The notes: a model not told the origin generated them from the letters alone. Positions 5,717 to 36,636 are shown, counted from the stretch's first letter. The stretch: DNA of 36,636 bases from Candidatus Krumholzibacteriia bacterium (GCA_041648155.1 JBAZPL010000002.1:1-36636), one strand, 5' to 3'. Program-made: numbers and translations.

Positions 5717-7612
<1,896 letters not shown>

Positions 7613-9307: not shown

Positions 9308-9577
9308 TGCCTTCTCCCCTCATTGCCCTATGGATTGAAAAAAGCAAGAAAACGATGATCGACCTCTATAGTAAGAGAAAAACTATCCATTTTCAACAAT
9401 TAATTTTCCCATTTATGATTAATTCCACATTAATGCAATTTGCTGCAAATAAATAAACTATCCATGCCGGCGACCAAGCCCCCTGCGCCACGGTGAGGCG
9501 CATATATCTCTTTCAAAATTCTAGACTTGATTCCCCCCTTCCCGTATATTCGACCTGAAAAGATGGAGATTATCGCG
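9308..9577. promoter_or_regulatory. Divergent intergenic control region (XRE-cupin genes leftward, LPS-core operon rightward) with an AT-rich core and operator-like repeats
   Basis: A sharp AT-rich island at about 9340-9470 sits in an otherwise GC-rich window. It holds an 11-bp direct repeat AAACTATCCAT at 9380-9390 and 9455-9465, and a perfect 6-1-6 palindrome ATTTGC-T-GCAAAT at 9438-9450. Confidence 0.5.
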
Positions 9578-22295: not shown

Positions 22296-23146
22296 TCCCA
22301 CAACCTCCCGACTCCGGCCGTTAGCGTGTTTCCCAACGCCGGATTCCGGCTCCACGAGAAATCCAGAATCGCCCGCGAGACCCTGACGACTATCCCGTTC
22401 GAAATTTCGCCGGTTTTCCACCGGTAGCCGGATACGAATGCGCATGTATCTCCGAACCAAGCTTCGAGCGCGCACTGCGCGTCCGTTCCGCGCGCACCGG
22501 AAATCGCTCGATCGATAGCGAGCACAAGCGAGCCGGCGCGCACAACCAGAAAGGCCCGGGCATTCCGCGGCCCGGGTTCCGCGCTCGTGGACGCGCGGCT
22601 CACGTATCCGACGCACACGCTCCCGCGGTATTCGTACGAGAAAGCGAGCGACAACGTGCGGGATCCCTCGGCGCTGAACCCGCGCGCCGCGCGTCTTTCG
22701 ATCGCGGGAATCGCATACAGCCGAAACCCCGCGCTGAAAGGACAGGAAAACCCCATCGCCGCAGCGAGACGGTCCTCCCGGTAAAGCGCGTGCCCGAGAT
22801 GGCGCCAATCGAGCCATGCCGAAAACGATCCTCCGTCGATTCCGGAGAGGAGATCAGAGGAGACGATGCCGTCGAGCATGTATGGATTCGCGGCGGTCGC
22901 ATGGAATCCCGCTCGCTTCTTTCCACTCGTGCCGCTTCCGAAAAAGAAGTTCCCGGACGCGACTCCCTGCGGGCAGCCGGCGAGCAGACGGGCAGGGCAT
23001 TCCGACGCGTTCGAATCCGCGGCCGGCGCATTCGCGGTGGCCGCATTCGAGGCGGCCGCAAGCCACAGGGCGCATATCAGCACGACGGAGCCGAGCGCTT
23101 TGCCTAATTTCCCGCCACCACGATGCATGTCTTTTCCTTTCTGCAT
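22289..23146 (-). CDS. Predicted outer-membrane beta-barrel protein (285 aa), family not identified
   Basis: MQKGKDMHRGGGKLGKALGSVVLICALWLAAASNAATA is a signal peptide. The body is beta-rich and ends in ...GVGRLWEW, an aromatic C-terminal residue typical of the OMP beta-signal. The ATG at 23146 is preceded by GGGAGGAGGGG. It overlaps the upstream gene by 43 nt. Confidence 0.6.
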   Translation of the reverse strand: MQKGKDMHRGGGKLGKALGSVVLICALWLAAASNAATANAPAADSNASECPARLLAGCPQGVASGNFFFGSGTSGKKRAGFHATAANPYMLDGIVSSDLLSGIDGGSFSAWLDWRHLGHALYREDRLAAAMGFSCPFSAGFRLYAIPAIERRAARGFSAEGSRTLSLAFSYEYRGSVCVGYVSRASTSAEPGPRNARAFLVVRAGSLVLAIDRAISGARGTDAQCALEAWFGDTCAFVSGYRWKTGEISNGIVVRVSRAILDFSWSRNPALGNTLTAGVGRLWEW

Positions 23147-24834
23147 ACCCCTCCTCCCGGCCGGATATACTCGACGAGACAGATATAAAGTCCGGTTCGC
23201 ACAAGGGCACCGCCGTTTGATCGGCCGTCCCACCGGCATGAAAAGACGTCCGCTCCTCCGCTCTCGCCGTAAATACGTCGAATCTCGTACCCTTCGCGGT
23301 CGAATATCCTTACGAGAAAACCCGCTTCTCCTTCGGCGCGTCTTCCCGTCACCGAGACTTCGCCGTCGCGCCGCGCACAGAACGGGTTGGGTGAAACGGA
23401 GAGCCCCCCGAAACCCGGAGGCCGCTCGATCAGCATGGAATTCTCCCGTCCCGGAGTCGCGCGGAGCTCGGCGACAGAGCGGTGCCAGATCCCTCCGGCG
23501 CGATCGCTGCAGAATTCGGTCGAAACGCGCTCGATGCTTCTCCCGCGTTCGGCTCCGAGCAGATCGCGATACGAGACCCTCTCTACGAGAACACTCGACT
23601 CATCGAAGAGCGCGATAGCGTCCGCGCGATCCCCCTTGTCCGTGTCGTTCAAGGCAGGCCAGCCTCCCTCGATGCCGCTCACCGGCGCTTCGCACGCCGG
23701 AAACTGGCGAGCGAATGATGCCGAATCCTTCGCCAATATCGAGAATCCTCCCGGCGGAAGAATCATATCCGTCGAGGAAACGAGCCGCCTCGAACCGGTC
23801 GCGTCGCAGAGCGCCCATCCCTTGAGATTGCAATCGGCGATGGAAACGTTCACGATTTCTATCCACTCGCTCATCTCCCGGTCGGGGCGATACATGATTT
23901 CGTTTATGACGATCGCTCCGGGGGACGCGCCGAGAAATACGGAGGTCGTGTCGTTTACGGGGTTTTCGTCGGGGGCGCCGTCGAGATACGCTCGGACTTC
24001 GAAGCGGGGCGATTGCGGGGCCGCCAGGGTGAGCTCGATCGAATCCGCGGCCGAGGCCGCGATATCGAGAGCGCGCTCCAGCTCGCCGGACGATGCAACA
24101 GAACCAAGCTCTCTCACTTCGGTCAGAATCGAAACATGGCTGTTGATCGGTTCGAGGCCGCAGTTCGCGATTCTCAGCTTCAGGGAAAAGAACGTTCCGC
24201 GGCACGGAAGGACGTCCTCCCCGACGAGGCGAATGCCGGCATCGAACCGGAAGAAATTCCTTCGCCCGGGTGTCGGCGGCGCGGGAACGAAGTCCGCGTC
24301 GTTCCTGTCGCTGTCGAAGCCGTCCGGTTTTCGCGCGAGGCTCGTTCCCGCGGAGACGTCCGGGGCGGGGGCAGTTTCATAGAGATCGCTCGATGCGCAG
24401 GAGCCGTATCCGACGAGATCGATGATGCCCGAAGGTGAAACAAGCCGCACCGCGTCGGGACCATTCCCGAGAGTTCCCTTGAGCAGAAATCCCGGGGAAG
24501 ATACGCGCTCGATTCCGGCGATGCACAGAAAATCACCCGGCCCGATGACAGCATCGGCCGAGGCCGCCCACACAACTTTCACGTTTCCGGTCGTTCCGTC
24601 GAGAGCTTCCAGGAACCAGCCCGAAAGCGCGTGAGGGAAGGCATCCGGATTGTAAATCTCGATGAACTCCCATCCGTCGTCCCTGCCCGAATGATCGTAA
24701 TAAACTTCGTTGATGACGACGCCGGCCGCGCATGGGTCTGCGAAAACGATTTCGATGAAAACGCCCGCAACGAGAGCGAAGAAGAAATGAAAATAAAAAA
24801 GGCTCCACCGCCGCATCATCCACCACCACATCAT
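23104..24834 (-). CDS. Secreted/surface protein with two lamin-tail domains (LTD), a central CARDB-like Ig module and a C-terminal FlgD-Ig-like domain
   Basis: VVINEVYYDHSGRDDGWEFIEIYNP....LSGWFL and IVINEIMYRPDREMSEWIEIVNVS...NLKGWAL are LTD signatures. The C-terminus LVRIFDREGYEIRRIYGE......FSCRWDGRSNGGALVRTGLYICLVEY resembles FlgD-Ig / sorting-type Ig domains. Hydrophobic N-terminus MMWWWMMRRWSLFYFHFFFALVAGVFI. Confidence 0.75.
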   Translation of the reverse strand: MMWWWMMRRWSLFYFHFFFALVAGVFIEIVFADPCAAGVVINEVYYDHSGRDDGWEFIEIYNPDAFPHALSGWFLEALDGTTGNVKVVWAASADAVIGPGDFLCIAGIERVSSPGFLLKGTLGNGPDAVRLVSPSGIIDLVGYGSCASSDLYETAPAPDVSAGTSLARKPDGFDSDRNDADFVPAPPTPGRRNFFRFDAGIRLVGEDVLPCRGTFFSLKLRIANCGLEPINSHVSILTEVRELGSVASSGELERALDIAASAADSIELTLAAPQSPRFEVRAYLDGAPDENPVNDTTSVFLGASPGAIVINEIMYRPDREMSEWIEIVNVSIADCNLKGWALCDATGSRRLVSSTDMILPPGGFSILAKDSASFARQFPACEAPVSGIEGGWPALNDTDKGDRADAIALFDESSVLVERVSYRDLLGAERGRSIERVSTEFCSDRAGGIWHRSVAELRATPGRENSMLIERPPGFGGLSVSPNPFCARRDGEVSVTGRRAEGEAGFLVRIFDREGYEIRRIYGESGGADVFSCRWDGRSNGGALVRTGLYICLVEYIRPGGGVCRKEKTCIVVAGN

Positions 24835-24904: not shown

Positions 24905-26188
24905 TCATCTGGCCGTTCCCAGACTGCGAAGTATCCTTTCACCCCGGTCGCTCCCCTTCTCGTAGCCATACCATCCTCCGGCGATCCTGCCGCGGATATC
25001 TATGATGTAATTGAGCGGCAGGGCGCTCTGCCCCTTCGCCGTTTGATATTGTTCATGGAATACTTCCCGCGCGACGGCCGTCGTATCGACGACGTTCCGG
25101 AACCGTATCATCTTCTCGCGAAGGAATTCCTCCGCCGGCTCCCTGCCGTCCGCGCAGTTGAAACCGAGCACGAGGAGCCCTTCTCCCGCGTATCTGTCTT
25201 GAAGGTTCTGAAGATGGGGGAGTTCCTTGCGGCACGGTACACAGCTCAGCCGCCAGAATGAGAGCCAGACGACCTTGCCGCGATGCTCCGACAGTCGGAA
25301 TCGCGTGCCGTCGAGAAGCACAAGATCGAAATCGGGCGCTTCGCTCCCCGGTCTCAGGAGACCGTCATCGAGCGATTGCAGCCGGTACTCCTCCCATCGG
25401 GCGGGCGGCTTCCACCTGAATTGATCTTTCGAAACCGCGCCGTTGACGACGACGTCGCGCCAACGCTCTCGCACGACGATATCGCGCTTCCCTCTCATCG
25501 TCTCTTCGAGCCTCCGGGGCAGGCGGTCGCGTCTCGAGATCCAGAACACCCTCGTCCGCCGGCCTTTCAGGTAGCTCGCCTCGATGATGTCGCACACCTC
25601 TCCGTCGACGTTGACCGAACCTGCGCTCTTCACGCTTTCGAGGAGCGCGTCCATGAGATCGGGACTTCCGTGGAAAATGCTCGGATCGATAATCGTCATC
25701 GACATCCCCGTGCCGAGAACGCTCGTTTCGCGCGCGATCGAATGACCGCCTTTCCCCGCGTCCTTCCGGAGATACGACCTCCGGACGTCGCGCGTGTTCG
25801 CCGCGGAATCGCTTTCATGGATGTAGGGTCTCCCGTCCGGCCAGTAAATCCACATCCGGCGGCCGTCGAGGATAAGGACGCCGGTCCTTGTCCCGTCCTC
25901 GCTTCTCGATTCGAGCCGCGCGAAGTTCGGCTTCTTGAGCAACAGCCGATAGCTCGAACGGCCGATCTCTTTCCCGCCGGTTTCCCGAACGTACTCGCTC
26001 TCATAGGAGAGAGCGCGCGCCTCACGCATCGCCGCGTGCATGGCCCGGTAGATCGCGAGCGCCGCGATGTCCCCTTTCACAACGGCGCCGGACTCTCGCC
26101 CGGGCGGAGCCGCGCCGGATACGGAGAATGTCGCGAGCGCCGAAAGTACGCCCGCAATGAGCATCGAAACGTTCCTGAGCGTCTTCAT
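24905..26188 (-). CDS. Fusion protein: LolA-like (DUF2092-type) domain plus TlpA/ResA-like thioredoxin-fold thiol:disulfide oxidoreductase
   Basis: Signal peptide MKTLRNVSMLIAGVLSALATFSVSGA. LSYESEYVRE...YRLLLKKPNFARLES...ILDGRRMWIYWP is lipoprotein-sorting-like. APDFDLVLLDGTRFRLSEHRGKVVWLSFWRLSCVPCRKELPHL carries a CxxC redox motif. The ATG at 26188 overlaps the upstream TGA (ATGA). Confidence 0.8.
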   Translation of the reverse strand: MKTLRNVSMLIAGVLSALATFSVSGAAPPGRESGAVVKGDIAALAIYRAMHAAMREARALSYESEYVRETGGKEIGRSSYRLLLKKPNFARLESRSEDGTRTGVLILDGRRMWIYWPDGRPYIHESDSAANTRDVRRSYLRKDAGKGGHSIARETSVLGTGMSMTIIDPSIFHGSPDLMDALLESVKSAGSVNVDGEVCDIIEASYLKGRRTRVFWISRRDRLPRRLEETMRGKRDIVVRERWRDVVVNGAVSKDQFRWKPPARWEEYRLQSLDDGLLRPGSEAPDFDLVLLDGTRFRLSEHRGKVVWLSFWRLSCVPCRKELPHLQNLQDRYAGEGLLVLGFNCADGREPAEEFLREKMIRFRNVVDTTAVAREVFHEQYQTAKGQSALPLNYIIDIRGRIAGGWYGYEKGSDRGERILRSLGTAR

Positions 26189-28332
26189 ACGAGTCCCCAC
26201 GCCTTCCTCAGTATCCACTCAACGCCGAGGAACAGGATGATGCCCATGAGAATCAGGACGTTTCCACGAACCTCGCGGATGTCGCTGCGTTCGACGCGCT
26301 GTTCGTCGAGACTCAGGTGCCGGGCGAGAGAGTCGAGCTCGGCGCCCTCGAGATATGAGCCTCCCGTGTCCTTCGCAATCCGTGCGAGGAGAGCCGCGTC
26401 CCGCGACGGATCGAGCAGCTCGACCGATACGCTCGCGACGGAGAAGGACGCCACCGCGGTCATTCCGCTCCCGGAGCCGGTCACTTCGGAGACGACCACG
26501 ACGTAATCGCCGGGGGGAAGCGGATCGAGCGTCGCGCGGTAATAACCACGCCGCTTCGGATCCGGCTCGAATGCGACGGTGCTCACGGCAATGTCGCGAC
26601 TCTCCCCTCTTTTTCGCACCTCTCCCCGTATTCCTTCCGGCGGGCGTCTGCTCCCGATATATGCGGCGAGCTTCACAGGGTCTCCGGCGCGATAGACGGT
26701 CCGGTCGGCGTCGATAGCGAGCGCGGGCGCGCCCGCGCCCTCGGCCATGCTCTGCACGAGCCCGCCGAAGAACGATTCGTAGATCCTCCGCCCCTCCTCG
26801 CCGGCAAGCTTCCACCTCCAGAGAGGAAACCCGAGAATCGCGCCCGAGAGCCCCTCGCCACACCGCCCAATAACAAGAAAGGGCGTCCGTGTCCCGCGAT
26901 CCTCGAGAACAAGCGGTATCCGCGATCCCGAAGCCGCCGCGAGTCCCGCGATTCTCGCCGGGAGCGGCGGCATGGCGTCGAGACCTCCATCCTCGGCGAG
27001 GCTTGAAGCGATCGCGTCGCCGACACCCTCCGCCGAAACCCGGGCGAAGCCCTCCGCGTATTCGATCCGCGGATTGGACACGCGCCGGAGGCCCAACAGC
27101 GGCTGAAGGAGATCGAACGATCCGGCTCTCGCCAGCGGAGAATTTTCGTCCGCGATGAAAAGAACGCTTCCTCCCGTCCGGACGTAGGCGTCGAGAGTTT
27201 CCACGTTCGGCCGCTCGTTGAAGAGCTTCGCGTCGTCCGAAACGATCACAAGGTCGTATCGCGCGATCCCGGCCGCGCCCGTGGGGAATGTCCACGGCCT
27301 TTTCCCGGGATCGATCACGAAACCCCTGTCCGCTACCCAGGAAACCGCTTCCACCTCGAGTCGTTCCGAGCCCTTGACGAGATCGCGCACGAAGGTCATG
27401 TTCCAGTCCGGATACTGATCGATATAGAGAATCCGCACCTTGTCCTTGAGAACGTCGAGGCGAAACGATTCGGCATTGTTTTCCCGGTGCTCCTCCCCCG
27501 CGACGGGCATCACCTTTACCGAGAGCCGGCGCTCTCCTTCCGCGTCAGCCGCATAGCTGAGCGAAGCGCTGATGAGCTCTTCATCCCTTTTCACGGAAAT
27601 GGTCGCGCTGTCCCTGATCTTTTCCCCTTCGAGGAGGCGCACGGCGATCGTTTTGCCCTTGAAGCCCGAGGCGCGGATAACCGCCTCGATGGGAACCTTC
27701 GTTCCCCGGTACGCTACGCGATCGGCGACGACTTCGTCGAGAGAGACGTCGGCCGTGCCGAGCGTATCACCGAAACCGATCGCATAAACCGGCGACGCGA
27801 CGATTTCACCCGACGAGACCATCCCGCGCGTGACACGTCCGTCCGTGAGGAGAATCAGTGCCGCGAGATTCCGGGCGCGGTACCTTTTCTGCGCGGCTCC
27901 GAGGGCGCCCCACAGGTCCGTGCCCTCCCCGTCGGCCCTGATCGCGCTGTCGGGCCGGAGCGGAAAGCTCGATAGCGCGTCCGCGAAGGGTATGACCTCG
28001 ACGTCCGTTTTCACACCGTCAAGCGCGGCGCGAAAACGCTCGAGACGATCGAGCGCGTCCTCGAGCCTCATTTTTCCCGACGAATCACGAATTTCCATGC
28101 TGCGTGAGCGATCGAGAAGGACGAGAACGAGCGGCTTCCTGATTTCGACCCTTTTCGAGATGAACACGGGATTGATGAGGAGAAGAGCGAGGAGAACGAA
28201 CGCCCCGATCCGCATCGCGACGAGGATCGCGCGCCGCGGGGCCGGAATGGGCGGAAACGTCCTTCGGTACAGGACGAACGATACTACCACGAGCGCGGCG
28301 GCGACGGATATTTTCCAGAGCTCGAGATGCAT
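26185..28332 (-). CDS. vWA-domain membrane protein (BatA-like N-terminal double-TM, vWA, GATase1-like middle region, C-terminal TM anchor)
   Basis: N-terminal TMs WKISVAAALVVVSFVLY and AILVAMRIGAFVLLALLLINPVF. The vWA MIDAS start is LVLVLLDRSRSM, with ...ILLTDG further on. RILYIDQYPDWNMTF is like the class-I amidotransferase-like fold seen in such proteins. C-terminal TM LILMGIILFLGVEWILRKAWGL. Confidence 0.8.
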   Translation of the reverse strand: MHLELWKISVAAALVVVSFVLYRRTFPPIPAPRRAILVAMRIGAFVLLALLLINPVFISKRVEIRKPLVLVLLDRSRSMEIRDSSGKMRLEDALDRLERFRAALDGVKTDVEVIPFADALSSFPLRPDSAIRADGEGTDLWGALGAAQKRYRARNLAALILLTDGRVTRGMVSSGEIVASPVYAIGFGDTLGTADVSLDEVVADRVAYRGTKVPIEAVIRASGFKGKTIAVRLLEGEKIRDSATISVKRDEELISASLSYAADAEGERRLSVKVMPVAGEEHRENNAESFRLDVLKDKVRILYIDQYPDWNMTFVRDLVKGSERLEVEAVSWVADRGFVIDPGKRPWTFPTGAAGIARYDLVIVSDDAKLFNERPNVETLDAYVRTGGSVLFIADENSPLARAGSFDLLQPLLGLRRVSNPRIEYAEGFARVSAEGVGDAIASSLAEDGGLDAMPPLPARIAGLAAASGSRIPLVLEDRGTRTPFLVIGRCGEGLSGAILGFPLWRWKLAGEEGRRIYESFFGGLVQSMAEGAGAPALAIDADRTVYRAGDPVKLAAYIGSRRPPEGIRGEVRKRGESRDIAVSTVAFEPDPKRRGYYRATLDPLPPGDYVVVVSEVTGSGSGMTAVASFSVASVSVELLDPSRDAALLARIAKDTGGSYLEGAELDSLARHLSLDEQRVERSDIREVRGNVLILMGIILFLGVEWILRKAWGLV

Positions 28333-28390
28333 CAGCTTCTTCCTTGGGCATTACGGTTGATGCATCCTAGCAGAGAGAAAAGCCGGCGTC

Positions 28391-28422
28391 AAAATCGAAA
28401 ACCGGTCGGGAAACCCGACCGG
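28391..28422 (-). terminator. Rho-independent terminator closing the STAS/partner-switching operon
   Basis: Perfect 9-bp stem CCGGTCGGG/CCCGACCGG (28402-28410 / 28414-28422) with an AAA loop. On the minus strand it is followed by TTTTCGATTTT (complement of 28391-28401). It lies 50 nt after the stop at 28472. Confidence 0.72.
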
Positions 28423-28471: not shown

Positions 28472-28930
28472 CTAATCGGTCTTGTGCCCCGGCGAGCTCG
28501 CGACCCGTGCGCCGTTGCCGCCTGACGCCGAATTCTCGCCGGAATCGACGGACTTCGCTCCGGCGTCGCCCGACGTCTTCTTGTAGCTCTTCACGGCCTC
28601 GTCGACCGTATCGAAGCTCTGGAGAATAGTTTGAAACTCGAGCAGCTCGAAAACCTCGAAGACGTCCCCGATCATCGCCGCGAGCCTCAGATCGCCGCCG
28701 TTCTCGCGAATCGATTTGATCTCGCCGATGAAGATGCCCCAGCCCGCCGAACTGATGTAGTTCACGCCGCCGAGGTCTACGACGATATTGTAACGACCCT
28801 TTTTGAGAAGTCTCTTCAGGCTCTCCTCGAGCTCGGCCGATGTGGTAGTATCCACGTACCCCTGAACGGACAGCACCGATACTTCCGCATTCTCCTCAGG
28901 TCTCGAAAATGATACGTTGATCCCTTCCAT
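28472..28930 (-). CDS. STAS-domain protein (anti-sigma-factor-antagonist family) with a low-complexity C-terminal tail
   Basis: VLSVQGYVDTTTSAELEESLKRLL.....NIVVDLGGVNYISSAGWGIFIGEIKSIRENGGDLRLAAMIGDVFEVFELLEF is the SpoIIAA/RsbV-like fold. The Ser pair lies in YISSAGWG (nt 28736-28759). Confidence 0.88.
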   Translation of the reverse strand: MEGINVSFSRPEENAEVSVLSVQGYVDTTTSAELEESLKRLLKKGRYNIVVDLGGVNYISSAGWGIFIGEIKSIRENGGDLRLAAMIGDVFEVFELLEFQTILQSFDTVDEAVKSYKKTSGDAGAKSVDSGENSASGGNGARVASSPGHKTD

Positions 28931-28954: not shown

Positions 28955-29329
28955 TCACGAATCCTGAATCTTTGTATTCTGATGCATCGCGAAGGCGGCG
29001 AGCGCCTCCTCCTTCGTGTTGTACGGCTTCAGGAGCGTATTGAACTCAAGAAGATCGAATACTTCCCGCACGTCGACGTGCATCGACGCAAGCTTGATGT
29101 CCCCGTTCCGCTGCCTGATTCCCTTGATCTCCCCGACGAAGATACCCCACCCTGCGGAGCTGATGTAGTTCACGTCGCCGAGATCGGCGACGATCCGAAC
29201 GCTGTTCGACGAGACGAGATCGTTGAACTTGTCCTCGAGGAACTGTGCCGTGCCCGAATCGATGATCCCGCGCAGTTTCAGAACGACGACATTATCCACG
29301 AATTCTTCATCAATAACAAGCTTGTCCAT
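28955..29329 (-). CDS. STAS-domain protein (anti-sigma-factor-antagonist family)
   Basis: VVVLKLRGIIDSGTAQFLEDKFNDLV...VRIVADLGDVNYISSAGWGIFVGEIKGIRQRNGDIKLASMHVDVREVFDLLEF, with the motif at nt 29144-29167. I prefer the ATG at 29329 (AGGAGAGG upstream). The track start at 29371 would sit 3 nt after the TPR gene stop. Confidence 0.88.
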   Translation of the reverse strand: MDKLVIDEEFVDNVVVLKLRGIIDSGTAQFLEDKFNDLVSSNSVRIVADLGDVNYISSAGWGIFVGEIKGIRQRNGDIKLASMHVDVREVFDLLEFNTLLKPYNTKEEALAAFAMHQNTKIQDS

Positions 29330-29374
29330 AAATCTGCCGGTCCTCTCCTGTGCCCGTCCCCATACTAGCAAACT

Positions 29375-30493
29375 TCAGTCCAATAATGCCTTAAGAAGGA
29401 TAAATATGCCTTGCCGGTCGTTCTCGGATAACCGCAGGTTTTTCTGGGCCTTTTGATAGTTGGTGTTTATCTCGAGAGCCTTGCGGAAGGCCTTGCTCGC
29501 CCTGTCCATATATATCTTGCATTTTGCAGTATATAGAATGCCAAGGCTGTTGTAACCATCCGCAAAGGTCGGGTTCTGGTCGACAATTTCCCGCACCCGG
29601 TCGAGATATCTCTCGATCTCTCCCTCCTGGAACTCCTCCCCGTCGTAGAGCAGCATCATATAGAGATCGAGAATGATATCGTCGATGCCGCCGCGGGCCG
29701 ACAGCTGCTTCGCCGACTCGAGAATCCCGTATGCGCCGTCGTAGTCCTTCTCCCTGAAAAGTGAGCGCGCCTCCTCGAGGCGGTCGTGCATGAGGTACGG
29801 ATCGAGCTGCTCCGCGCGCTCGAGGTTGCTCAGAAAAGTCGATTCGAGTTCGCGCGAGAGCTCGTAATCCTCCTTCACGATGGTGTTGAGGAGATAGGCG
29901 CGCGCGAGGTTGAGGTAAGACTCGCCATAGTAGAGGTTGAGCTCGATGGCCCGCTTGAAGCACTCGATCGCCGGCTTGCATTTCTGCTGCTTGAGATAGA
30001 CCTTGCCGAGAAGGTTGTGCATGTCGGGGTAATCCGGCGTGACCTCGATGCCGGCCCGTGTCGCCTCGAAAGCCCTCTCGAAATCTCCCATCTCGTAGTA
30101 CGACTCCCCGACGATCATGCTGGAAAGGGAATCCTTGTTCCCTTTCTTGATGGCTTTTTGCGCCTCCTGGATCGCTTCCTGATAGAGATGCCGCTTGAAG
30201 AGCGCTTGGGCGATTTTGAGATGCGGCTTCGGATCCTCCGAGGAACGGATGCGTTCGCTCACGCCGAGGATGAGCATGAATTTCTGTTTGTTCTCGAGAT
30301 GCGCTTCCTTCGTCGCGCGACGCACGTCGTCGGGCGCTCCCTTGCCGTCGATCGCCGTCTGAACCGTATCGAAGAGAACACCGTCTTTGAAAAACGAGCT
30401 CTGGATGACGCCCTTTTTCTGTAGAAGACTCGTCTGGAGGAAATACTTCTTCCCCCCGTGATCGATCTCTTCTCTCAATTCAAAACTGGTCAC
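29375..30493 (-). CDS. TPR-repeat protein with a non-TPR N-terminal ~90 aa
   Basis: Repeated 34-aa A/Y/G patterns: IAQALFKRHLYQEAIQEAQKAIK, GESYYEMGDFERAFEATRAGIEVTPDYPDMHNLLGKVYLKQQKCKPAIECFKRAIELN, NSLGILYTAKCKIYMDRASKAFRKALEINTNY. Confidence 0.85.
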   Translation of the reverse strand: MTSFELREEIDHGGKKYFLQTSLLQKKGVIQSSFFKDGVLFDTVQTAIDGKGAPDDVRRATKEAHLENKQKFMLILGVSERIRSSEDPKPHLKIAQALFKRHLYQEAIQEAQKAIKKGNKDSLSSMIVGESYYEMGDFERAFEATRAGIEVTPDYPDMHNLLGKVYLKQQKCKPAIECFKRAIELNLYYGESYLNLARAYLLNTIVKEDYELSRELESTFLSNLERAEQLDPYLMHDRLEEARSLFREKDYDGAYGILESAKQLSARGGIDDIILDLYMMLLYDGEEFQEGEIERYLDRVREIVDQNPTFADGYNSLGILYTAKCKIYMDRASKAFRKALEINTNYQKAQKNLRLSENDRQGIFILLKALLD

Positions 30494-30544: not shown

Positions 30545-31321
30545 CTAGAGAACCGGCGCCGCCTCCGCGCTATCCGCGCGCGAACGTTCGAGCCCGAGGA
30601 TCTCCTCGGTGAGATGATAATAATCGAACGCGCCCCGCGAAAGCGGCGCGTGCTCGAATACCGTCTTGTTCTGTCCGGGAGCCTCCCGTATCGCCGCGTT
30701 CATCCGTATGATCGTCGTGAATATCCGCTCTCCGAAGCGCTCGCGGAGATCGCCGAGCATCAGGTGCGACAGCCGGATCCGGGAATCGTAAAACGTGGGC
30801 AGCAGCCGAAACGATATGGGCTTCCGGCTGTTGAGCGTTTGAATCTCCTCGATGATGCTTGCCGTTTGCTCGGCGCCCGCCCGCGAAAGGTAATCCATGG
30901 AGACGGGAATGATGACCTCGTCGCAATAGGCCAGCGCGTTGATATTGATGAGATTGAGGGACGGCGAGCAGTCGCATATCACGTAATCGCATCCCTTGAG
31001 GTGCTTGAGAGAATCCGCCAGCCTCCGCTCGCGGTGCTCCCTCGCTCCGAGTTTGAGCTCGACCTCGGCGAGCTTGCGCCCTCCCGAGTCGATGAAAAAC
31101 AGATTGTCGCGCACCTGGAGGATGTCGACGTCTCCCGAGGTAAGAAGATCCGCGAGCCCTTTCGGACTCTCGACTCCGAAGGTTACCGCGACACTCCTCT
31201 GCGGATCGCAATCGATGAGAAGAACGCGGCGGCCGGACAGGGAGAGGCCGTGGGCGAGGCTGACCGCGGTAGTGGTCTTCCCCGTCCCCCCCTTCATCGT
31301 CATGATCGCGTATCGTTTCAT
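30545..31321 (-). CDS. ParA/MinD-superfamily ATPase (orphan ParA-like; no ParB nearby)
   Basis: MKRYAIMTMKGGTGKTTTAVSLAHGLSLSGRRVLLIDCDPQ carries the deviant Walker A KGGxxGKT. Also DYVICDCSPSL (Walker B region) and ...YDSR. The start lies 3 nt after the stop of the 1420-aa gene. Confidence 0.9.
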   Translation of the reverse strand: MKRYAIMTMKGGTGKTTTAVSLAHGLSLSGRRVLLIDCDPQRSVAVTFGVESPKGLADLLTSGDVDILQVRDNLFFIDSGGRKLAEVELKLGAREHRERRLADSLKHLKGCDYVICDCSPSLNLININALAYCDEVIIPVSMDYLSRAGAEQTASIIEEIQTLNSRKPISFRLLPTFYDSRIRLSHLMLGDLRERFGERIFTTIIRMNAAIREAPGQNKTVFEHAPLSRGAFDYYHLTEEILGLERSRADSAEAAPVL

Positions 31322-31324
31322 AAG

Positions 31325-34300
31325 CTATCTCTTCCGGCGCTTCGGGTTCTTTTCCGACTCCGAAAGCTTCTTCCCGTATTCTTCCCACCCCAGTTTCTTG
31401 ATGCGGTGGTCCTTGTCCTCGCGCACATCCGTGCGCTGTTTGAAGTCGATAAAGATGACTTTTTCCTCTTCCTTCACGGTCTTCAGCGGCTCGAGAGGAA
31501 TGATGTCCGCCTTGCCGAGGAGCGCGGAAGCGAGATCCTGCCCCGCATCAGCCTGTTCGACCGGCGCGTCGGGAACGGGAGCATCCTTTCTCGGGCGGCT
31601 CTCCGCCCCTGCCGGCACGATCTTCCCCTTTCGTACGGCTTCCCCGAGGTTCTTCGGAAGCCGGAGCTCCTCGAGCGCGCGCTCGAGCGTCCCGAAATGC
31701 GGGATGAGCGGCTCGAACCCGAGGTCTCTGAATATCTTCAGGATCGTCGAATTCATCCCCGCGAGAGCGAGCGCGCCCCCCGAAGCCCCCAGCTTCTGCA
31801 TATACTTGACGACGATGCCCCACCCGCTGCTGCTTATATATACCATATCGGAAAGATCGAGCACAAGGTGCGCGGGATTCTCGGCGAGACACTGTTCCAG
31901 CCTGCTTTCGAGCTCGTCGGACGTCGAAGAGTCGACGGCACCGCCGATCGAGAGCACGATGATTCCCTTCGGACCGTCCGTCGCCTTTGCGACGCCGATC
32001 GCGAGTCCCGGTTCGACACGTTTCGCGCCGGCCATTCCTTCGGGAATCGGCTGAACGGATTCCCCAAGCGCCTCCGCTTCGATTGCGTCCTCGTATCCGT
32101 CCCCCGCCGGCGACGGAACCTTGAAATTCTCGATGGCCTCGCTGAGGACGCCGAAGGAGCGCATGATGGAATCGAATCCGAGCATGTGGAAAATGCTGTG
32201 AACCTCTTCATCCATGCCGAATATCTTGAAATCTCCTTCGCGCGCGCGGATATCCTTTATCCGCGACGCGAAGACGCCCCACCCGCTCGAGCTCACATAT
32301 TCCACTCGCGACATATCGACAACGAGCTTCACGATGCCCCGATCGACGAAGCTGTCCAGGACCGAGCGGAGCTTGACGCAGCTCACCGTATCGATAACGC
32401 CGTCGAGATAGAGGATCGTGATTTCGCCGCGCTCGCCGACGGTTCCCGCCTCGATTTTGAGCGCTGTCCACGGAGTCTCGTCGCCCGGAACGTCGAGAAT
32501 CTCGGGAGCGCCGGGCGATTCGGAAGCCTGTCTCACCTCGAGAGGCTTGAGCGCCGCGCGTCGCCGCGACACTTCTTCGAGCCGCTTCTCGCGCTCGACA
32601 AGCGACAAGGTTACGTATCCGACAGCCGCCTCGACGTCCGGGAACTGCATGATGATCTCCTGAAAACCGAGGAGCTCGTAGATATCATACACTTCGCTCG
32701 ACATACCGGCGAGGACGACATCCCCCTCTCCCTCCCTGAGCAATTTCACTCTGCCCGTGAATATTCCCCAACCGCCGCTCGAAATATAGGTCACGTCCTT
32801 GAGATCGACGATGATCTTTCGATAGCCGTACTCGTAGACGCTTTCGAGGATTCCCTCGAGCTCTCCCACCGAAGATGAATCGAGATGCCCCTTGACCCGA
32901 AGAACGACAATCCCTCCCTCGAGCTCCTCCGACGTGACCTCGACAGCCCGCCCCTCACCCACCGCGTATTCCGTTTTATGCGCGACATTCCGGTCGCGGG
33001 CCCCCGTGGGCACGAGCTTCGCCTGGCGGGCCGCGCGGGCGGGGCGGGGAGCGGGCGCTTCGGCGATCTCCGGTTCATCGGAAATAGAAGCGATCCCGTC
33101 TCCAGCGGCGAGTTTGAAAGCATCCGGCTCCGCGCGCACCTGCGCGGCCAGCAGCGCCTTGAACTGCTCGTCGGTGATGATCTTGTTGCGGCGCAGGTAT
33201 TCGAGTCTCAGATCGTACGTATTGAGGCGGATGCGTTTCAGCTCGTCGTAGACGATCGCTTGGGTAAGACGCTCCTTTTCCTCTTTCTCTTCGTTGAACA
33301 GGTCCGCGATCTTCTTCGCGCCGTATTTCGGATTCTTCTTGATGATCTCGAGTATGCCCTTGCGCTGCTCGAGACTCACCCGTTTGATGTCGTCCTCTAT
33401 TCGAAGCGTCTTGTCCTGAAGCCCCCGGTCACCCATCTCGACGACGCGTTTCTTGTATCGATAATAGGTCGACGGCGAAACCTTCATCATCCGACACGCT
33501 TCGGCGACGGGCATTCCCTGGATCTCGACGAGATCGAGGAGCTTCTTGCGGATGCCGTAGAGCACCTCGTCCGCCATGAGTTTTTCCTTGATCGCGACGA
33601 CGGTGATATCGTCGTTCTGCGGCATGTCGCCGGTGAACTCCTTGATCGCTTCGCTCAAACGGTCGATAAACTCCTGCGGGGAGAGCTTCCCGCTCGCCTT
33701 GATGAGCTGAATGAGACGCTCTTCGCCGTACTGATCGCGGTTGACGTTCATCGCTTCCGTCACGCCGTCGGTGTAGATGACGAGCATGTCGTCTTTCTTG
33801 AGCTTGATCTTCTCGACGTCGATCGAGCGGCGAAACAGCGTATCGTCGGGAAGACTGATCCCGACGGGAAATCCGCGGGGATTGAGGAAATACGTTTCGT
33901 CCGTCTCCGCGCGGTAGAGAATCATCGGATTGTGCCCCGCGCTCGCGTAGCTGATGATTCGGTTTTTCGAATCGAGGATCGAATAGAAGATCGTGACGAA
34001 CATTCCCTTTTTCATATCTTCCGTCACGAAGTCGTTCATTCGGGACATGACCTCGGCGGCGGAGTAATTGCCGCGCGCTTCCATCCTGAGCGCGGTCCGT
34101 ATCATCGTCATGACGAGCGATCCGGGCACGCCCTTGCCCGAGACGTCCGCCACGACGACCCCGAGCGTATCCTCGTCGACCTTCACGAAGTCGTAATAAT
34201 CCCCGCCGACCTCTTTTGCGGCTTTGTAGTAGCTCGCGATATCGTAGCCGCCGATTTCGGGAACGCGCTTCGGAAGGAGGGTGTGCTGGATCTCCTGGGC

Positions 34301-35587
34301 GACCTGCATCTCTTTCTGCAGGCGTTCTTGCTCGACGACATTCTTCTGCGCTGCGCGGAACTTCGAGGTGATTTCGTTGAACGCCCGCGCGATCTCGCCG
34401 ATCTCCTTGGGACCTTCGATCTTGATCTCGTCGTTGAGCGAGCCTTCCCCGATAGCGCGCACGCCTTCCGTGAGCGCCTGAATCGGCCGCACGAAAACCG
34501 CGATAAGGAGATAGATGAGCGCCACGCCCGCGGCGAACACGCCGACGAGGAGCAGCGTCATCATCGGCCTCGGATCGACCAGGTCTTCGACGACCATGGC
34601 TATCGAGACGCCCGTGACGATCCTGCCGATCGGTTCGGCGTTCGCCCGTTCCGTCCCCGCCCGGTACACGGGCTGATGGAACTCCCTGACCGCGCCGACT
34701 CCCGGCATTTGAACGGTGCGCGACGCGCCTTCCTTCGTGAGCGATCCCGCCTCGGCCGGAATGTCGTACGCCGAGAGAAGTTCGTCGACGTCGCTCGAGG
34801 CGATGACGATTCCGTCCCTGTCGACGAGCCTGATATATCTCGTCTCGGGATATTTCTTGATCTGCTTGATGAAGGTGTCGCTCAAGCGCGTGCGCTCGAC
34901 CGAATACTGATCCTCGCCGAGAGCGTTTTCGCTCGCCGTGGCGATATTCTCGGCGACGGCTTTTCGCTGGAGCCACGCCTGCGCGTACCTCCCGCGAACC
35001 TCCTGCGTCTGTCGATAGAACAGTATCGACCAGAGAAACACGATGAGCCCGAAAAGACCGAGCGTCGCGCGCAGCGCGAATTTGAAGCGGAGCGTCGAAG
35101 TCCACCGGGGCCTCATGAGCGAAGCGAAGAGCGGTCTCTGGGCGCCCGATGCGGTCGAGCTCTTCGCCATGTAGAGCCGGTTGCCCCCCGGCGCGGCCGA
35201 ATAGCTGAGGGTGTCCATGAGCCGGTTCATGAGGTAAATGCCGAGTCCGCCCTTTTTCCCCATCTCGACGTAGAGATCGAGGTCGGGCTCCTTCACTTTC
35301 GACCAGTCGAACGGCTCCCCCCGGTCGAAGATGTTGATCTCGACCTTCCCCGGCTCGGCCTGGACGTCGATCCTGACGTCCCCCACTTTATCCCGGTATG
35401 CGTGCTTGATGATGTTCGTGCAGGCTTCGTCCACGGCGAGCTTCGTATTGGCCGTCTCGCTCTTCGAGAAACCCGCGCGATCGCAGATAGCGGCGATGAA
35501 GTCCCTGACCTCGCTCAGGTTGTTCTCGTCGGCGGGTACCTCGAGATGAAACGTTTCACGATCGGTGAGGAAATCCTTCTTCTTCAC
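31325..35587 (-). CDS. 1420-aa multidomain signalling protein: RsbW/SpoIIAB-like Ser kinase, TM, extracytoplasmic sensor, TM, HAMP, PP2C/SpoIIE phosphatase, transposase-like double HTH, STAS x3, basic C-terminal tail
   Basis: Uninterrupted 4263-nt ORF. The GTG start at 35587 overlaps the upstream TGA (GTGA). Domain motifs are listed in the sub-features below. Codon usage is like the neighbours, and all alternative-frame ORFs here are Arg/Pro-rich shadows. Confidence 0.88.
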   Translation of the reverse strand: MKKKDFLTDRETFHLEVPADENNLSEVRDFIAAICDRAGFSKSETANTKLAVDEACTNIIKHAYRDKVGDVRIDVQAEPGKVEINIFDRGEPFDWSKVKEPDLDLYVEMGKKGGLGIYLMNRLMDTLSYSAAPGGNRLYMAKSSTASGAQRPLFASLMRPRWTSTLRFKFALRATLGLFGLIVFLWSILFYRQTQEVRGRYAQAWLQRKAVAENIATASENALGEDQYSVERTRLSDTFIKQIKKYPETRYIRLVDRDGIVIASSDVDELLSAYDIPAEAGSLTKEGASRTVQMPGVGAVREFHQPVYRAGTERANAEPIGRIVTGVSIAMVVEDLVDPRPMMTLLLVGVFAAGVALIYLLIAVFVRPIQALTEGVRAIGEGSLNDEIKIEGPKEIGEIARAFNEITSKFRAAQKNVVEQERLQKEMQVAQEIQHTLLPKRVPEIGGYDIASYYKAAKEVGGDYYDFVKVDEDTLGVVVADVSGKGVPGSLVMTMIRTALRMEARGNYSAAEVMSRMNDFVTEDMKKGMFVTIFYSILDSKNRIISYASAGHNPMILYRAETDETYFLNPRGFPVGISLPDDTLFRRSIDVEKIKLKKDDMLVIYTDGVTEAMNVNRDQYGEERLIQLIKASGKLSPQEFIDRLSEAIKEFTGDMPQNDDITVVAIKEKLMADEVLYGIRKKLLDLVEIQGMPVAEACRMMKVSPSTYYRYKKRVVEMGDRGLQDKTLRIEDDIKRVSLEQRKGILEIIKKNPKYGAKKIADLFNEEKEEKERLTQAIVYDELKRIRLNTYDLRLEYLRRNKIITDEQFKALLAAQVRAEPDAFKLAAGDGIASISDEPEIAEAPAPRPARAARQAKLVPTGARDRNVAHKTEYAVGEGRAVEVTSEELEGGIVVLRVKGHLDSSSVGELEGILESVYEYGYRKIIVDLKDVTYISSGGWGIFTGRVKLLREGEGDVVLAGMSSEVYDIYELLGFQEIIMQFPDVEAAVGYVTLSLVEREKRLEEVSRRRAALKPLEVRQASESPGAPEILDVPGDETPWTALKIEAGTVGERGEITILYLDGVIDTVSCVKLRSVLDSFVDRGIVKLVVDMSRVEYVSSSGWGVFASRIKDIRAREGDFKIFGMDEEVHSIFHMLGFDSIMRSFGVLSEAIENFKVPSPAGDGYEDAIEAEALGESVQPIPEGMAGAKRVEPGLAIGVAKATDGPKGIIVLSIGGAVDSSTSDELESRLEQCLAENPAHLVLDLSDMVYISSSGWGIVVKYMQKLGASGGALALAGMNSTILKIFRDLGFEPLIPHFGTLERALEELRLPKNLGEAVRKGKIVPAGAESRPRKDAPVPDAPVEQADAGQDLASALLGKADIIPLEPLKTVKEEEKVIFIDFKQRTDVREDKDHRIKKLGWEEYGKKLSESEKNPKRRKR
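31664..31981 (-). other. Domain: STAS 3, aa ~1203-1308
   Basis: IIVLSIGGAVDSSTSDELESRLEQCL...HLVLDLSDMVYISSSGWGIVVKYMQKLGASGGALALAGMNSTILKIFRDLGF. YISSSGWG is at nt 31817-31840. Confidence 0.85.
32120..32455 (-). other. Domain: STAS 2, aa ~1045-1156
   Basis: ITILYLDGVIDTVSCVKLRSVLDSF...KLVVDMSRVEYVSSSGWGVFASRIKDIRAREGDFKIFGMDEEVHSIFHMLGF. YVSSSGWG is at nt 32276-32299. Confidence 0.85.
32612..32935 (-). other. Domain: STAS 1, aa ~885-992
   Basis: VVLRVKGHLDSSSVGELEGILESV...KIIVDLKDVTYISSGGWGIFTGRVKLLREGEGDVVLAGMSSEVYDIYELLGF. YISSGGWG is encoded at nt 32765-32788 (verified by hand translation). Confidence 0.85.
33188..33574 (-). other. Domain: double helix-turn-helix resembling transposase N-terminal DNA-binding modules, aa ~672-800
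   Basis: GMPVAEACRMMKVSPSTYYRYKKRVVEMGDRGLQDKTLR...SLEQRKGILEIIKKNPKYGAKKIADLFNEE...LTQAIVYDELKRIRL has the pattern of IS630/IS481/IS3-type HTH pairs. No DDE catalytic domain follows. Confidence 0.6.
33587..34255 (-). other. Domain: PP2C-type (SpoIIE/RsbU family) Ser phosphatase, aa ~445-667
   Basis: AQEIQHTLLP...GGDYYDF...GVVVADVSGKGVPGSLVM...FVTIFY..LD.....ISYASAGHNPMILY...GDMLVIYTDGVTEA...NDDITVVAIK contains the metal-binding Asp motifs. Confidence 0.88.
34328..34489 (-). other. Domain: HAMP linker, aa ~367-420
   Basis: RPIQALTEGVRAIGEGSLNDEIKIEGPKEIGEIARAFNEITSKF follows TM2 directly (classic P-x-x-x-L ... E-I-G-x-L-A-x-A-F-N pattern). Confidence 0.8.
34490..35074 (-). other. Domain: TM1, ~150-aa extracytoplasmic (Cache-like?) sensor, TM2, aa ~172-366
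   Basis: Hydrophobic LRATLGLFGLIVFLWSILFY and MMTLLLVGVFAAGVALIYLLIAVF flank a soluble segment containing YIRLVDRDGIVIASSD. The Cache-like assignment is a guess from this pattern only. Confidence 0.6.
35162..35560 (-). other. Domain: anti-sigma-factor-type serine kinase (HATPase_c_2-like), aa ~10-142
   Basis: LEVPADENNLSEVRDFIAAICDRAGFS...TKLAVDEACTNIIKHAY (N-box), INIFDRGEPFD (G1), KKGGLGIYLMNRLMD (G2). Confidence 0.8.
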
Positions 35588-36636
35588 CGTTTTCCCTCCG
35601 GGACGCCTGTATTCTCAAGCCGCTTCCGGGCTTCCTCGATATTTTTCGAGACGCTTTCGTTATCGGGATCGATGTCGAGAATCTTCTTCCACTGCTCGAT
35701 GGCGCTCGTATACTTGCTCTGGGTAAAGAACTTCAGCCCTTCGATGTAGAGCGCGCGAACCTGCGCTTTCTCCTTGTCGGTGAGCGGCGTCATGCGGCGC
35801 TGGGCGCGGAGCAGGAGCTTCCGCCCCTCCTCGTGGGTCGGCTCCAGTCTGAGGAGCTCGCCGAGCTCGGCGGACGCGTCGGCATATCTTCCGTCCCCGA
35901 ACGCCTTCACGGCTCCGTCGAAGAGCTCCATGACCCTCAGCCTCTTGCTCGTTTGCGTATAATCCCTGCTCATCTCGTCGAGACGCCGGTTGATCCGGTC
36001 CGCGGCTTGCTTCGCCTCGGCCGATTCGGGATCGAGCGTCCGCACGACGTTCCATTCGCCGAGGGCGGCCGCGAGCTGCCCTCGCCGCTCAAGATCGATC
36101 GCCTGGACCCGGTGCTGCTCGGCGAGGCTTCCGAGCTTCTCCTCCGTTTTCCCGAGATACTCGCGCGCATTTACGTTCGACGAATCGAGCTCGAGGACGT
36201 TGCGCCACTCCGCACGGGACAAAACGTAATCGTCCTTGCTGTAATAATCGAGGCCGAGCCTGAAATGCCGGCTGATGAGGGCGGCCTTTTCGGCATCCTG
36301 CGTGCGCGCCTCCTCCTTCGCAAGAATGGTGCGCTCCACGACGGCGAGCGTTTCGGAGACGGCGACGTCCGTGGGATCGTACTCGAGGGCGATCTTGAGC
36401 TCGTCGAGCGCTTTGCCGAGCGCGCCTTCCTTCCGGTAGCGCTCCGCCTCGCCCACGTGGCCGGAAATCCGCTTCGCAAGGATCTGCTGGATGCGTCTCT
36501 CCTCTTCGGCGAGGAGGCGCTGCTCGCGGGTAGCGATCTTCTCCTCGATCGAAGCGCCGATGCGGTACGATAGCGTCAGAGGATGCGAGCTCCCTGCGTC
36601 GCCGCGGCTGAAGTAGCCGTAGTCGAACGAGAAGCC
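35584..36636 (-). CDS. TPR/coiled-coil protein, C-terminal part; the gene continues past the right edge of the window
   Basis: The track shows 35584..36456 from a GTG, but the same frame stays open to base 36636 (upstream residues GFSFDYGYFSRGDAGSSHPLTLSYRIGASIEEKIATREQRLLAEEERRIQQILAKRISGH). TPR-like units include GALGKALDELKIALEYDP, YVLSRAEWRNVLELDSSN, LAAALGEWNVVRTLDPES, YADASAELGELLRLEPTH and YTSAIEQWKKILDIDPDN. Confidence 0.75.
   Translation of the reverse strand, partial: GFSFDYGYFSRGDAGSSHPLTLSYRIGASIEEKIATREQRLLAEEERRIQQILAKRISGHVGEAERYRKEGALGKALDELKIALEYDPTDVAVSETLAVVERTILAKEEARTQDAEKAALISRHFRLGLDYYSKDDYVLSRAEWRNVLELDSSNVNAREYLGKTEEKLGSLAEQHRVQAIDLERRGQLAAALGEWNVVRTLDPESAEAKQAADRINRRLDEMSRDYTQTSKRLRVMELFDGAVKAFGDGRYADASAELGELLRLEPTHEEGRKLLLRAQRRMTPLTDKEKAQVRALYIEGLKFFTQSKYTSAIEQWKKILDIDPDNESVSKNIEEARKRLENTGVPEGKR

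Follow-up and report, generated by a model that had tools for sequence, protein, structure and literature searches.

What does a bacterium sense, and what does it control, when it places the kinase, the phosphatase and several STAS substrates of a partner-switching system in one membrane protein? The question is raised by a gene on the minus strand (31325..35587) of a 36,636-nucleotide stretch of DNA from Candidatus Krumholzibacteriia bacterium (GCA_041648155.1 JBAZPL010000002.1:1-36636); we refer to this whole stretch as the window and count all positions from its first nucleotide. In partner switching, RsbW/SpoIIAB-type kinases phosphorylate a conserved serine of STAS domains and PP2C/SpoIIE phosphatases strip the phosphate. 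We read the gene product, with moderate confidence, as a periplasm-sensing partner switch contained in one chain, whose non-sigma output is tied to a type IX secretion system (T9SS) adhesin cassette. In any single output partner our confidence is much lower.

The gene begins with GTG and encodes 1420 amino acids without interruption, as a preliminary description made from the sequence had stated, and its GC content by codon position (0.62/0.39/0.79) is the coding pattern of a genome of ~60% GC. Two open reading frames (ORFs) of 806 and 954 codons on the opposite strand were rejected as shadow ORFs. Along the chain lie an RsbW-type kinase, a first transmembrane helix (TM1), a single Cache domain, a second transmembrane helix (TM2), a HAMP domain, a coiled coil, a PP2C/SpoIIE phosphatase, a bipartite helix-turn-helix (HTH) region, three STAS domains and a basic C-terminal tail. 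Pfam recovered HATPase_c_2 (PF13581, residues 17-142, E 8e-31), HAMP (residues 361-405, E 7e-10), SpoIIE (PF07228, residues 472-667, E 3e-51), the HTH families HTH_23, HTH_28 and HTH_32 (residues 680-776, E 1e-6 to 6e-5) and STAS in three stretches (E 4.5e-57), while NCBIfam returned RsbW (8.6e-24) and three anti-anti-sigma matches (7.5e-50). Sequence matches in the PDB were to the PP2C domain of Rv1364c and to RsbW, SpoIIAB, SpoIIAA and RsbV. As in Rv1364c, then, phosphatase, kinase and STAS substrate are all found within one polypeptide. The domains named in the preliminary description, from the N-terminal kinase with its N- and G-boxes through the HAMP linker and phosphatase to the double HTH and the three STAS domains, were all recovered by these searches.

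The protein is not the singular oddity that it first seemed. A protein search listed 120 relatives, 113 of them full length (1350-1600 residues); these are cluster representatives, and the counts are of matches listed. At least 113 full-length relatives, 45-93% identical to the window protein, share its Pfam content and architecture. The assemblies behind them are from JGI, ENA, NCBI and Logan and include contigs of 1.2-4.1 Mb; the sole names that these relatives carry are automatic ones, 'anti-sigma factor antagonist', under Candidatus Krumholzibacteriota, Krumholzibacteriaceae and Latescibacterota. Since every domain is retained in full-length homologues from independent assemblies, an assembly chimera or frameshift artefact was ruled out.

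The statements on invariance that follow refer to an alignment of 114 sequences, the window protein and its 113 full-length relatives. The N-terminal domain (35162..35539 (-), residues 17-142), to which the best RsbW/SpoIIAB family matches belong (RsbW 6M36, E 1e-15), is a HATPase_c_2-family GHKL serine kinase in which the N, G1 and G2 boxes are intact: D53, E54, N58 and H62 of the N-box, D88/G90 of G1 and G113-G116 of G2 are all invariant. The PP2C/SpoIIE serine phosphatase (33584..34255 (-), residues 445-668) is the most conserved part of the protein, with 86% mean identity; its metal-binding aspartates D463, D466, D481, D607, D659 and D660 are invariant, and the PP2C of Rv1364c is its best sequence match in the PDB (3KE6, E 6e-17). 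The motifs singled out in the preliminary description, DEACTNIIKHAY, GGDYYD, ADVSGKG, YTDGVTEA and NDDITV, were all found and are likewise invariant. A degenerate kinase or phosphatase was ruled out on these grounds. Because the catalytic and acceptor residues do not vary, both enzymes and all three STAS acceptors look functional.

The three fused STAS domains lie at 32618..32935 (-) (STAS1, residues 885-990), 32138..32446 (-) (STAS2, residues 1048-1150) and 31664..31996 (-) (STAS3, residues 1198-1308). Each had been described as carrying a serine pair at the position of the SpoIIAA/RsbV phospho-acceptor, and this holds: the predicted acceptor is the second serine of each Y[IV]SSxGWG motif (S937, S1100 and S1253), which is invariant. 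HMMER aligned S937 with Ser58 of Bacillus subtilis SpoIIAA (1AUZ/1TH8), and also with the position whose Ser-to-Ala difference distinguishes 1TID (Ala) from 1TH8; in the shared motif, S1100 and S1253 stand where S937 does. Phosphorylatable serines are thus predicted at the SpoIIAA Ser58 position. Orthologues are 61, 64 and 42% identical in STAS1, STAS2 and STAS3, STAS3 being the least conserved of the three, compared to 26-36% between positions, and by this measure the fused STAS domains are old, individually maintained paralogues. The segments that separate HTH, STAS1, STAS2, STAS3 and tail are poorly conserved, rich in Pro, Ala, Glu and Gly and variable in length (32-224 residues; 32-138 residues for the inter-STAS tethers), and we therefore regard them as flexible tethers. 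Action of the two enzymes in cis on the STAS array, as first proposed, is plausible.

The input part of the protein is modelled as a WalK-type unit. Hydropathy gave exactly two hydrophobic segments, at residues ~170-191 (TM1, 35015..35080 (-)) and ~341-366 (TM2, 34490..34567 (-)), which bracket ~149 residues (~192-340, 34568..35014 (-)), in line with the two helices and ~150-residue extracytoplasmic segment of the preliminary description. An AlphaFold2 model of residues 160-420 (predicted local distance difference test score, pLDDT, 82) shows a long TM1 helix running into the periplasm, an alpha/beta domain made of a long helix and a 5-stranded sheet, TM2, and a HAMP-like helix-connector-helix. 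In Foldseek, the whole model matched WalK over 266 aligned columns (E 2e-10); the periplasmic part matched DctB, CitA, DcuS and KinD, with Cache matches spanning E 2e-10 to 1e-3, and the periplasmic domain of chlamydial RsbU was a weak fold match (E 2e-3). The NCBIfam model HK_WalK also matches residues 187-424. The family sCache_3_2 (PF17203) scores 25.7 bits at residues 206-328 of the window protein, under the cut-off of 28.4 bits, and 43-45 bits in homologues, over the Pfam cut-off. It is the WalK match together with these scores of the homologues that leads us to assign the input to a transmembrane-single Cache-transmembrane-HAMP unit, with a periplasmic single Cache (PDC) sensor domain; this domain is the least conserved folded part of the protein (39% mean identity).

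The HAMP domain (residues 361-412) and the helical linker that follows it (residues 413-444), together at 34256..34507 (-), have constant lengths of 52 and 32 residues across the alignment. HAMP and other dimeric input domains have been described to steer dimers of PPM phosphatases via crossing helical linkers or coiled coils (PMC12143880). The kinase, the HAMP domain and the PP2C all have to be cytoplasmic, which sets an N-in/C-in topology with both enzymes on the cytoplasmic side, and this supports the earlier picture of opposing enzymes that flank one sensor.

The neighbouring genes point away from a self-contained module. The fusion is the second gene of a tightly packed same-strand run with spacings of -4, 3, 51, 45 and 24 nucleotides. 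Its start overlaps by 4 nucleotides the stop of an upstream gene (35584..36636 (-)) whose 5' end lies outside the window; the part within the window, open over all 350 codons, encodes the last barrel strands and TPR domain of a PorV/PorQ-family outer-membrane protein (family hidden Markov model (HMM), E 2e-141). Three nucleotides after the fusion comes a gene for a Soj/ParA-type deviant Walker A ATPase of 258 residues (30545..31321 (-); Thermus thermophilus Soj 1WCV, E 1e-37), and then one for a TPR protein of 372 residues (29375..30493 (-)). Two free STAS proteins follow, A (28955..29371 (-), with a likely true start at an ATG at 29329) and B (28472..28930 (-)); both bear the motif YISSAGWG, the same acceptor motif as in the fused domains, which brings the STAS domains to five. 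Directly after STAS B is a strong terminator-like hairpin (28402..28422 (-)) with a 9-bp stem, 8 GC pairs and a T-rich tail, followed by a promoter-like site (28364-28392 (-)). From these two elements the operon probably ends at the hairpin, and the next gene, which encodes a VWA-like protein, is suggested to begin a new transcript. The description of the fusion as a 'complete' module did not stand, as the Soj-like ATPase, the TPR protein and both free STAS proteins are encoded in the operon as well.

That next gene (26185..28332 (-)) is conserved and specifies 715 residues with two N-terminal transmembrane helices, a VWA-like domain (DxSxS) and a C-terminal transmembrane anchor that ends in EWILRK. 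It is kept beside the module in Krumholzibacteriota, Latescibacterota and Eisenbacteria. It matched no curated family, the VWA-like DxSxS motif and three transmembrane segments being all that was found, and its layout is reminiscent of BatA. Further along is a conserved gene for a protein with two lamin-tail domains (23104..24834 (-)), whose C-terminus weakly resembles the adhesin sorting domain: a local HMM linked its last ~80 residues to the adhesin C-terminus with E down to 1e-9, and one orthologue scored 14.6 bits against TIGR04183 (cut-off 23), for which the window protein had no listed match. On this resemblance it may be a second T9SS cargo. Between the VWA-like and lamin-tail genes the window has a gene for a 437-residue protein with a C-terminal AhpC/TSA (redoxin) domain (24905-26218 (-)), which overlaps the VWA-like gene by 34 nucleotides; no such gene was found at the corresponding position in the orthologous loci L001-L003.

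The association with type IX secretion comes from orthologous loci, including L005, since the adhesin itself lies past the end of the window. L001-L003, whose fusion proteins are 47-59% identical to ours, share the order PorV-TPR, fusion, ParA, TPR, STAS, STAS, a 725-residue protein and the lamin-tail protein, and upstream of PorV-TPR each has a giant adhesin of 3400-4500 residues with Big_1/invasin repeats (PorV-TPR and adhesin coordinates L001:6097-7998 and L003:1-6101). The L001 orthologue of the upstream gene scored 101.7 bits against NF033709 PorV_fam (cut-off 90). The giant adhesins scored 25-29 bits against the T9SS type A sorting domain TIGR04183 (cut-off 23) in four of five loci and 16 bits in the fifth. 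Judged in these loci, the module has both a PorV/PorQ-family neighbour and a cargo with a sorting domain. A PorV/PorQ-TPR gene stands directly upstream of the fused core in ~26 of the 29 loci with enough upstream sequence (24 scored automatically, together with L009 and L010, in which it had been hidden by stop-to-stop ORF limits), and most loci have a free STAS gene downstream of the core. In L005 (8022-10001) the PorV-TPR gene is split across three overlapping reading frames, which probably reflects assembly indels rather than real pseudogenisation.

A wider survey placed the protein within a large family. We searched 1.84 billion representatives exhaustively with residues 1-700 by HMMER and annotated the results with local domain HMMs and Pfam. 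The core of kinase, transmembrane helix, Cache (not always present), transmembrane helix, HAMP and PP2C proved to be a large multi-phylum family with interchangeable C-termini: no addition (~650-690 residues), HTH (~800-900), HTH and TPR repeats (1200-2250), HTH and two STAS (1100-1270), or HTH and three STAS, the window type, which was seen only in the Krumholzibacteriota/Latescibacterota loci L001-L007 and L029. One of these, L005 (metagenome-assembled genome (MAG) MFD04716.bin.2.236), is 95% identical to the window protein over residues 1-700. In a scan of one genome per GTDB species, the fused core occurred in MAGs labelled Krumholzibacteriota, Latescibacterota, Eisenbacteria, Calditrichota, KSB1, Zixibacteria and Ignavibacteria, and in a few labelled Cytophagia, Spirochaetia and Omnitrophota; in Planctomycetota, Firmicutes and Chloroflexi the closest relatives are split into adjacent genes for HAMP-PP2C, kinase and STAS. 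By predicted domain content the window protein is the end point of this fusion series and the most fused member of the family.

A conserved motif, GW-x2-YG-x-KL, followed by a polybasic tail (31328..31417 (-), residues 1391-1420) is present in every three-STAS protein, and the Soj-like ATPase gene is directly downstream in eight of eight loci; one STAS-less relative, P0127, also bears the motif. By analogy with the basic peptides of ParB- and McdB-type partners, the tail may be an ATPase-docking peptide. The fused TPR block of the Calditrichota/KSB1 variants matched both TPR families equally weakly (~25 bits), and we did not use it as evidence of a Rosetta-stone link to the 372-residue TPR protein.

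Parts of this architecture have known counterparts. SypE has an N-terminal RsbW-like kinase, a central input domain and a C-terminal PP2C (PMC10120452), and the central domain toggles the kinase against the phosphatase, with unphosphorylated SypA as the active output (PMC10120452, PMC8256260). SypA, a STAS protein, acts in this form on an unknown target and controls a surface/biofilm trait of Vibrio fischeri (PMC10120452, PMC8256260). The window protein follows the same order, with kinase at residues 17-142, input at 170-412 and PP2C at 445-668, and both activities would be aimed at a STAS serine; nor is the output of SypE a kinase that sequesters a sigma factor. The input here is a membrane TM-Cache-TM-HAMP unit, whereas that of SypE is a cytoplasmic REC domain, for which Pfam gave no match in the fusion protein. 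The two systems also differ in that the present chain extends into a bipartite HTH and three STAS domains, with five STAS substrates compared to one, and in that the phylum is another and the neighbours are type IX secretion cargo instead of the syp polysaccharide locus.

Rv1364c of Mycobacterium tuberculosis, in the order PAS-PP2C-kinase-STAS (PMC7693655, PMC12143880), autophosphorylates and autodephosphorylates its own STAS domain (PMC7693655). Like the window protein it joins a sensor, a PP2C, a GHKL serine kinase and a STAS domain in one chain. However, Rv1364c is cytoplasmic and SigF-linked, with one STAS and no HTH, whereas the window protein has two transmembrane helices, three STAS domains and another order, the last as the preliminary description had pointed out. 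Chlamydial RsbU and Pseudomonas SiaA share the series of transmembrane helix, periplasmic sensor, transmembrane helix, HAMP and PP2C, as well as a STAS or STAS-like partner, but their kinase and substrate are separate proteins. The SiaA model NF038263 matched residues 329-666 (E 1e-22) with 80.5 bits, far under its equivalog cut-off of 700, so the window protein is not a SiaA orthologue and the resemblance is architectural only. WalK has the same TM1, single Cache/PDC, TM2 and HAMP, in its case ahead of a HisKA/HATPase_c histidine kinase rather than a PP2C with an upstream serine kinase. Non-sigma STAS outputs also have precedents, in SypA and in the STAS-glycosyltransferase system of Anabaena.

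The earlier impression that the architecture was undescribed therefore holds for the combination, for which we found no precedent, but not for the kinase-input-PP2C order, which SypE has, nor for STAS in cis, which Rv1364c has. In full-text searches of a non-exhaustive literature library we found no paper on this architecture and none that links STAS or partner switching to type IX secretion; nor did we find one on how these uncultured lineages regulate secretion or adhesion. Fused partner switchers and non-sigma outputs are familiar; their combination and the link to T9SS would be new to a specialist.

We propose the following mechanism. The WalK-like unit of TM1, Cache, TM2 and HAMP would read a periplasmic signal and relay it via the rigid helical linker to a dimeric PP2C, the same unit being tethered by a ~25-residue linker to the N-terminal RsbW-type kinase. 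A ligand at the periplasmic Cache could then shift the balance of kinase and phosphatase, as REC does in SypE, and this balance would set the phospho-state of the three tethered and two free STAS domains. Unphosphorylated STAS domains would bind non-sigma partners. Candidates are the paired-type HTH, the TPR proteins and the Soj-like ATPase, for which the basic C-terminal tail might provide the contact; such partners might control how the giant type IX secretion adhesin encoded nearby is expressed, placed or deployed. That the serines are phosphorylated, and in cis, we infer from the sequence, as we do the direction in which the signal would act and the identity of the output. The alternatives considered below are not all mutually exclusive with this mechanism.

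The HTH region (33188..33574 (-), residues 672-800, with HTH1 at ~680-725 and HTH2 at ~735-802) is of the bipartite transposase/paired type. HTH_23 scored 28.5 bits (cut-off 24.6) and the NCBIfam model of the IS481 N-terminus 6e-14, and an AlphaFold2 model (pLDDT 81) showed two helical subdomains with a low-confidence linker between them. In Eisenbacteria and Calditrichota, where the core has no STAS, the free STAS protein bears a C-terminal extension (L008:12430-13098, L016:12784-13566, L021:11403-12131 and similar loci), and profile-profile comparison showed this extension to be homologous to HTH2, residues 735-802 (hhalign probability 96.8%, E 2e-10). Different phyla therefore link HTH2 with STAS in two distinct ways, and recurrent fusion of this kind is what one expects of direct functional partners.

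These observations could also be read to mean that the protein is a tethered one-component transcription factor like ToxR or CadC, in which the HTH is the sole output at the promoter of the adhesin operon, kinase, phosphatase and STAS only control whether it can reach DNA, and neither the ParA-like nor the TPR proteins serve as targets. The region is well conserved, with 40 invariant columns among 29 diverse sequences, its fold is confidently predicted, it belongs to the DNA-binding families HTH_23/28/32, and the recurrence of HTH2 fused directly to free STAS in other phyla is what such a reading would predict as well. However, the 650-690-residue core members without an HTH retain the same synteny and the free STAS, so the HTH cannot be the universal output. 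Foldseek of the HTH model against the PDB found no significant match to a DNA-bound HTH (best E 0.08), and the gene placed 3 nucleotides after the fusion, accompanied by the conserved basic tail, is that of the Soj-like ATPase. We consider the HTH rather unlikely to be the only output.

The preliminary description had framed the module after the Rsb/SpoIIA systems. The enzymes and substrates agree with this framing, the local gene content does not: the kinase, phosphatase and STAS features of partner switching are found in the sequence, but a cognate sigma factor gene is absent locally, with no sigma-70 family gene in the 36.6-kb window nor within 8 kb in three genomes (L001-L003), and type IX secretion genes stand there instead. 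In a classical membrane-tethered anti-sigma switch, the kinase would hold a sigma factor encoded at a distance until dephosphorylated cis or free STAS displace it, as in RsbU-V-W-sigmaB, SpoIIE-AA-AB-sigmaF and Rv1364c-SigF. The best matches of the kinase, RsbW and SpoIIAB, would suit such a switch, as would the matches of the STAS domains to the anti-anti-sigma models TIGR00377 and TIGR02886 and the binding of SigF in vitro by the nearest fused precedent, Rv1364c (PMC7693655). Yet the conserved partners over ~30 loci are envelope and secretion proteins, and RsbW-like kinases with non-sigma roles, such as SypE, are known. We find a classical anti-sigma switch decidedly unlikely, and the output is probably not a sigma factor.

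It is similarly improbable that the cis STAS array is a pseudo-substrate decoy or phosphate sink for the two free STAS proteins, which would be the true messengers and whose response it would buffer or sharpen. In favour of this reading, there are relatives with a single free STAS and none in cis, the flexible tethers differ in length, and the five STAS domains, sharing one acceptor motif, should compete for the same active sites, but each cis STAS is an old paralogue whose position-specific conservation reaches well past the acceptor motif, which argues for distinct partner surfaces over interchangeable decoys.

Several points weigh against the non-sigma, adhesin-linked mechanism that we favour. 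The target could still be a sigma factor encoded elsewhere in the genome. The synteny with the adhesin cassette is an association and gives neither the direction nor the nature of control. The positive-inside rule is indecisive for the topology, as arginines flank TM1 on both sides. Finally, DNA binding by the HTH is proposed from family and fold resemblance only, and the Foldseek matches of its model to TnsB, Pax5/6 and SETMAR/Mos1 are weak (E at least 0.08, TM-scores ~0.3).

The remainder of the window holds genes of other kinds. The cassette is directly followed, without a change of strand, by ORFs of 515 residues (18961-20508 (-)) and 749 residues (20568-22817 (-)), neither with a Pfam match and the latter with no NCBIfam match either; the former has a coding pattern of GC at third codon positions (GC3), and the latter failed the GC3 filter. 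A GT9 heptosyltransferase ORF (9527-10618 (+)) and a Kdo-transferase ORF (10102-11934 (+)) overlap by ~500 nucleotides as listed. The Pfam match of the Kdo-transferase starts at residue 213, which indicates a later start, probably near 10.6-10.7 kb, and makes the overlap an effect of ORF calling. Two tandem paralogues (8149-8712 (-) and 8747-9307 (-)) fuse an XRE-type HTH_3 to a cupin and are candidate small-molecule-sensing repressors, and a 631-residue protein (5717-7612 (-)) has thrombospondin type 3 repeats and a C-terminal OmpA domain. The other genes are of the housekeeping kind (UvrA, MazG, a radical SAM/SPASM protein, PurE, PurD, a LarA-like protein, an amino-acid kinase and an aminotransferase), and a GAF fragment is found at 1-708.

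Partner-switching modules are among the most widespread signalling devices of bacteria, and in the cases with non-sigma outputs, such as SypA, the direct STAS targets are mostly unknown. In the protein described here, the architecture itself suggests candidates: fusions between an HTH subdomain and STAS take two forms in different phyla, and genes for a Soj-like ATPase and TPR proteins share its tightly spaced operon, which yields partner hypotheses that can be tested. If the more far-reaching reading given below, of a control cassette for T9SS adhesins, were correct, this would be the first partner switch with a non-sigma target identifiable from the fusion itself, and the first case to be described of a signalling input dedicated to a T9SS cargo/PorV-like pair. 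The three tethered and two free substrates of one kinase/phosphatase pair would also make a natural multi-site system in which to study thresholds and ordering in serine phosphorylation.

The near-universal placement beside genes for a PorV/PorQ-like protein and a giant T9SS adhesin, which extends over Krumholzibacteriota, Latescibacterota, Eisenbacteria, Calditrichota, KSB1, Zixibacteria and Ignavibacteria, points to a sensory input that acts on adhesin deployment. We put forward, as a tentative and still doubtful possibility, that the protein is the hub of an unrecognised control cassette for T9SS adhesins across many FCB-related candidate phyla, in which a periplasmic signal would set the phosphorylation of the five STAS domains and the unphosphorylated STAS would act on the paired-type HTH and the Soj-like ATPase to switch on, position or release the adhesin.

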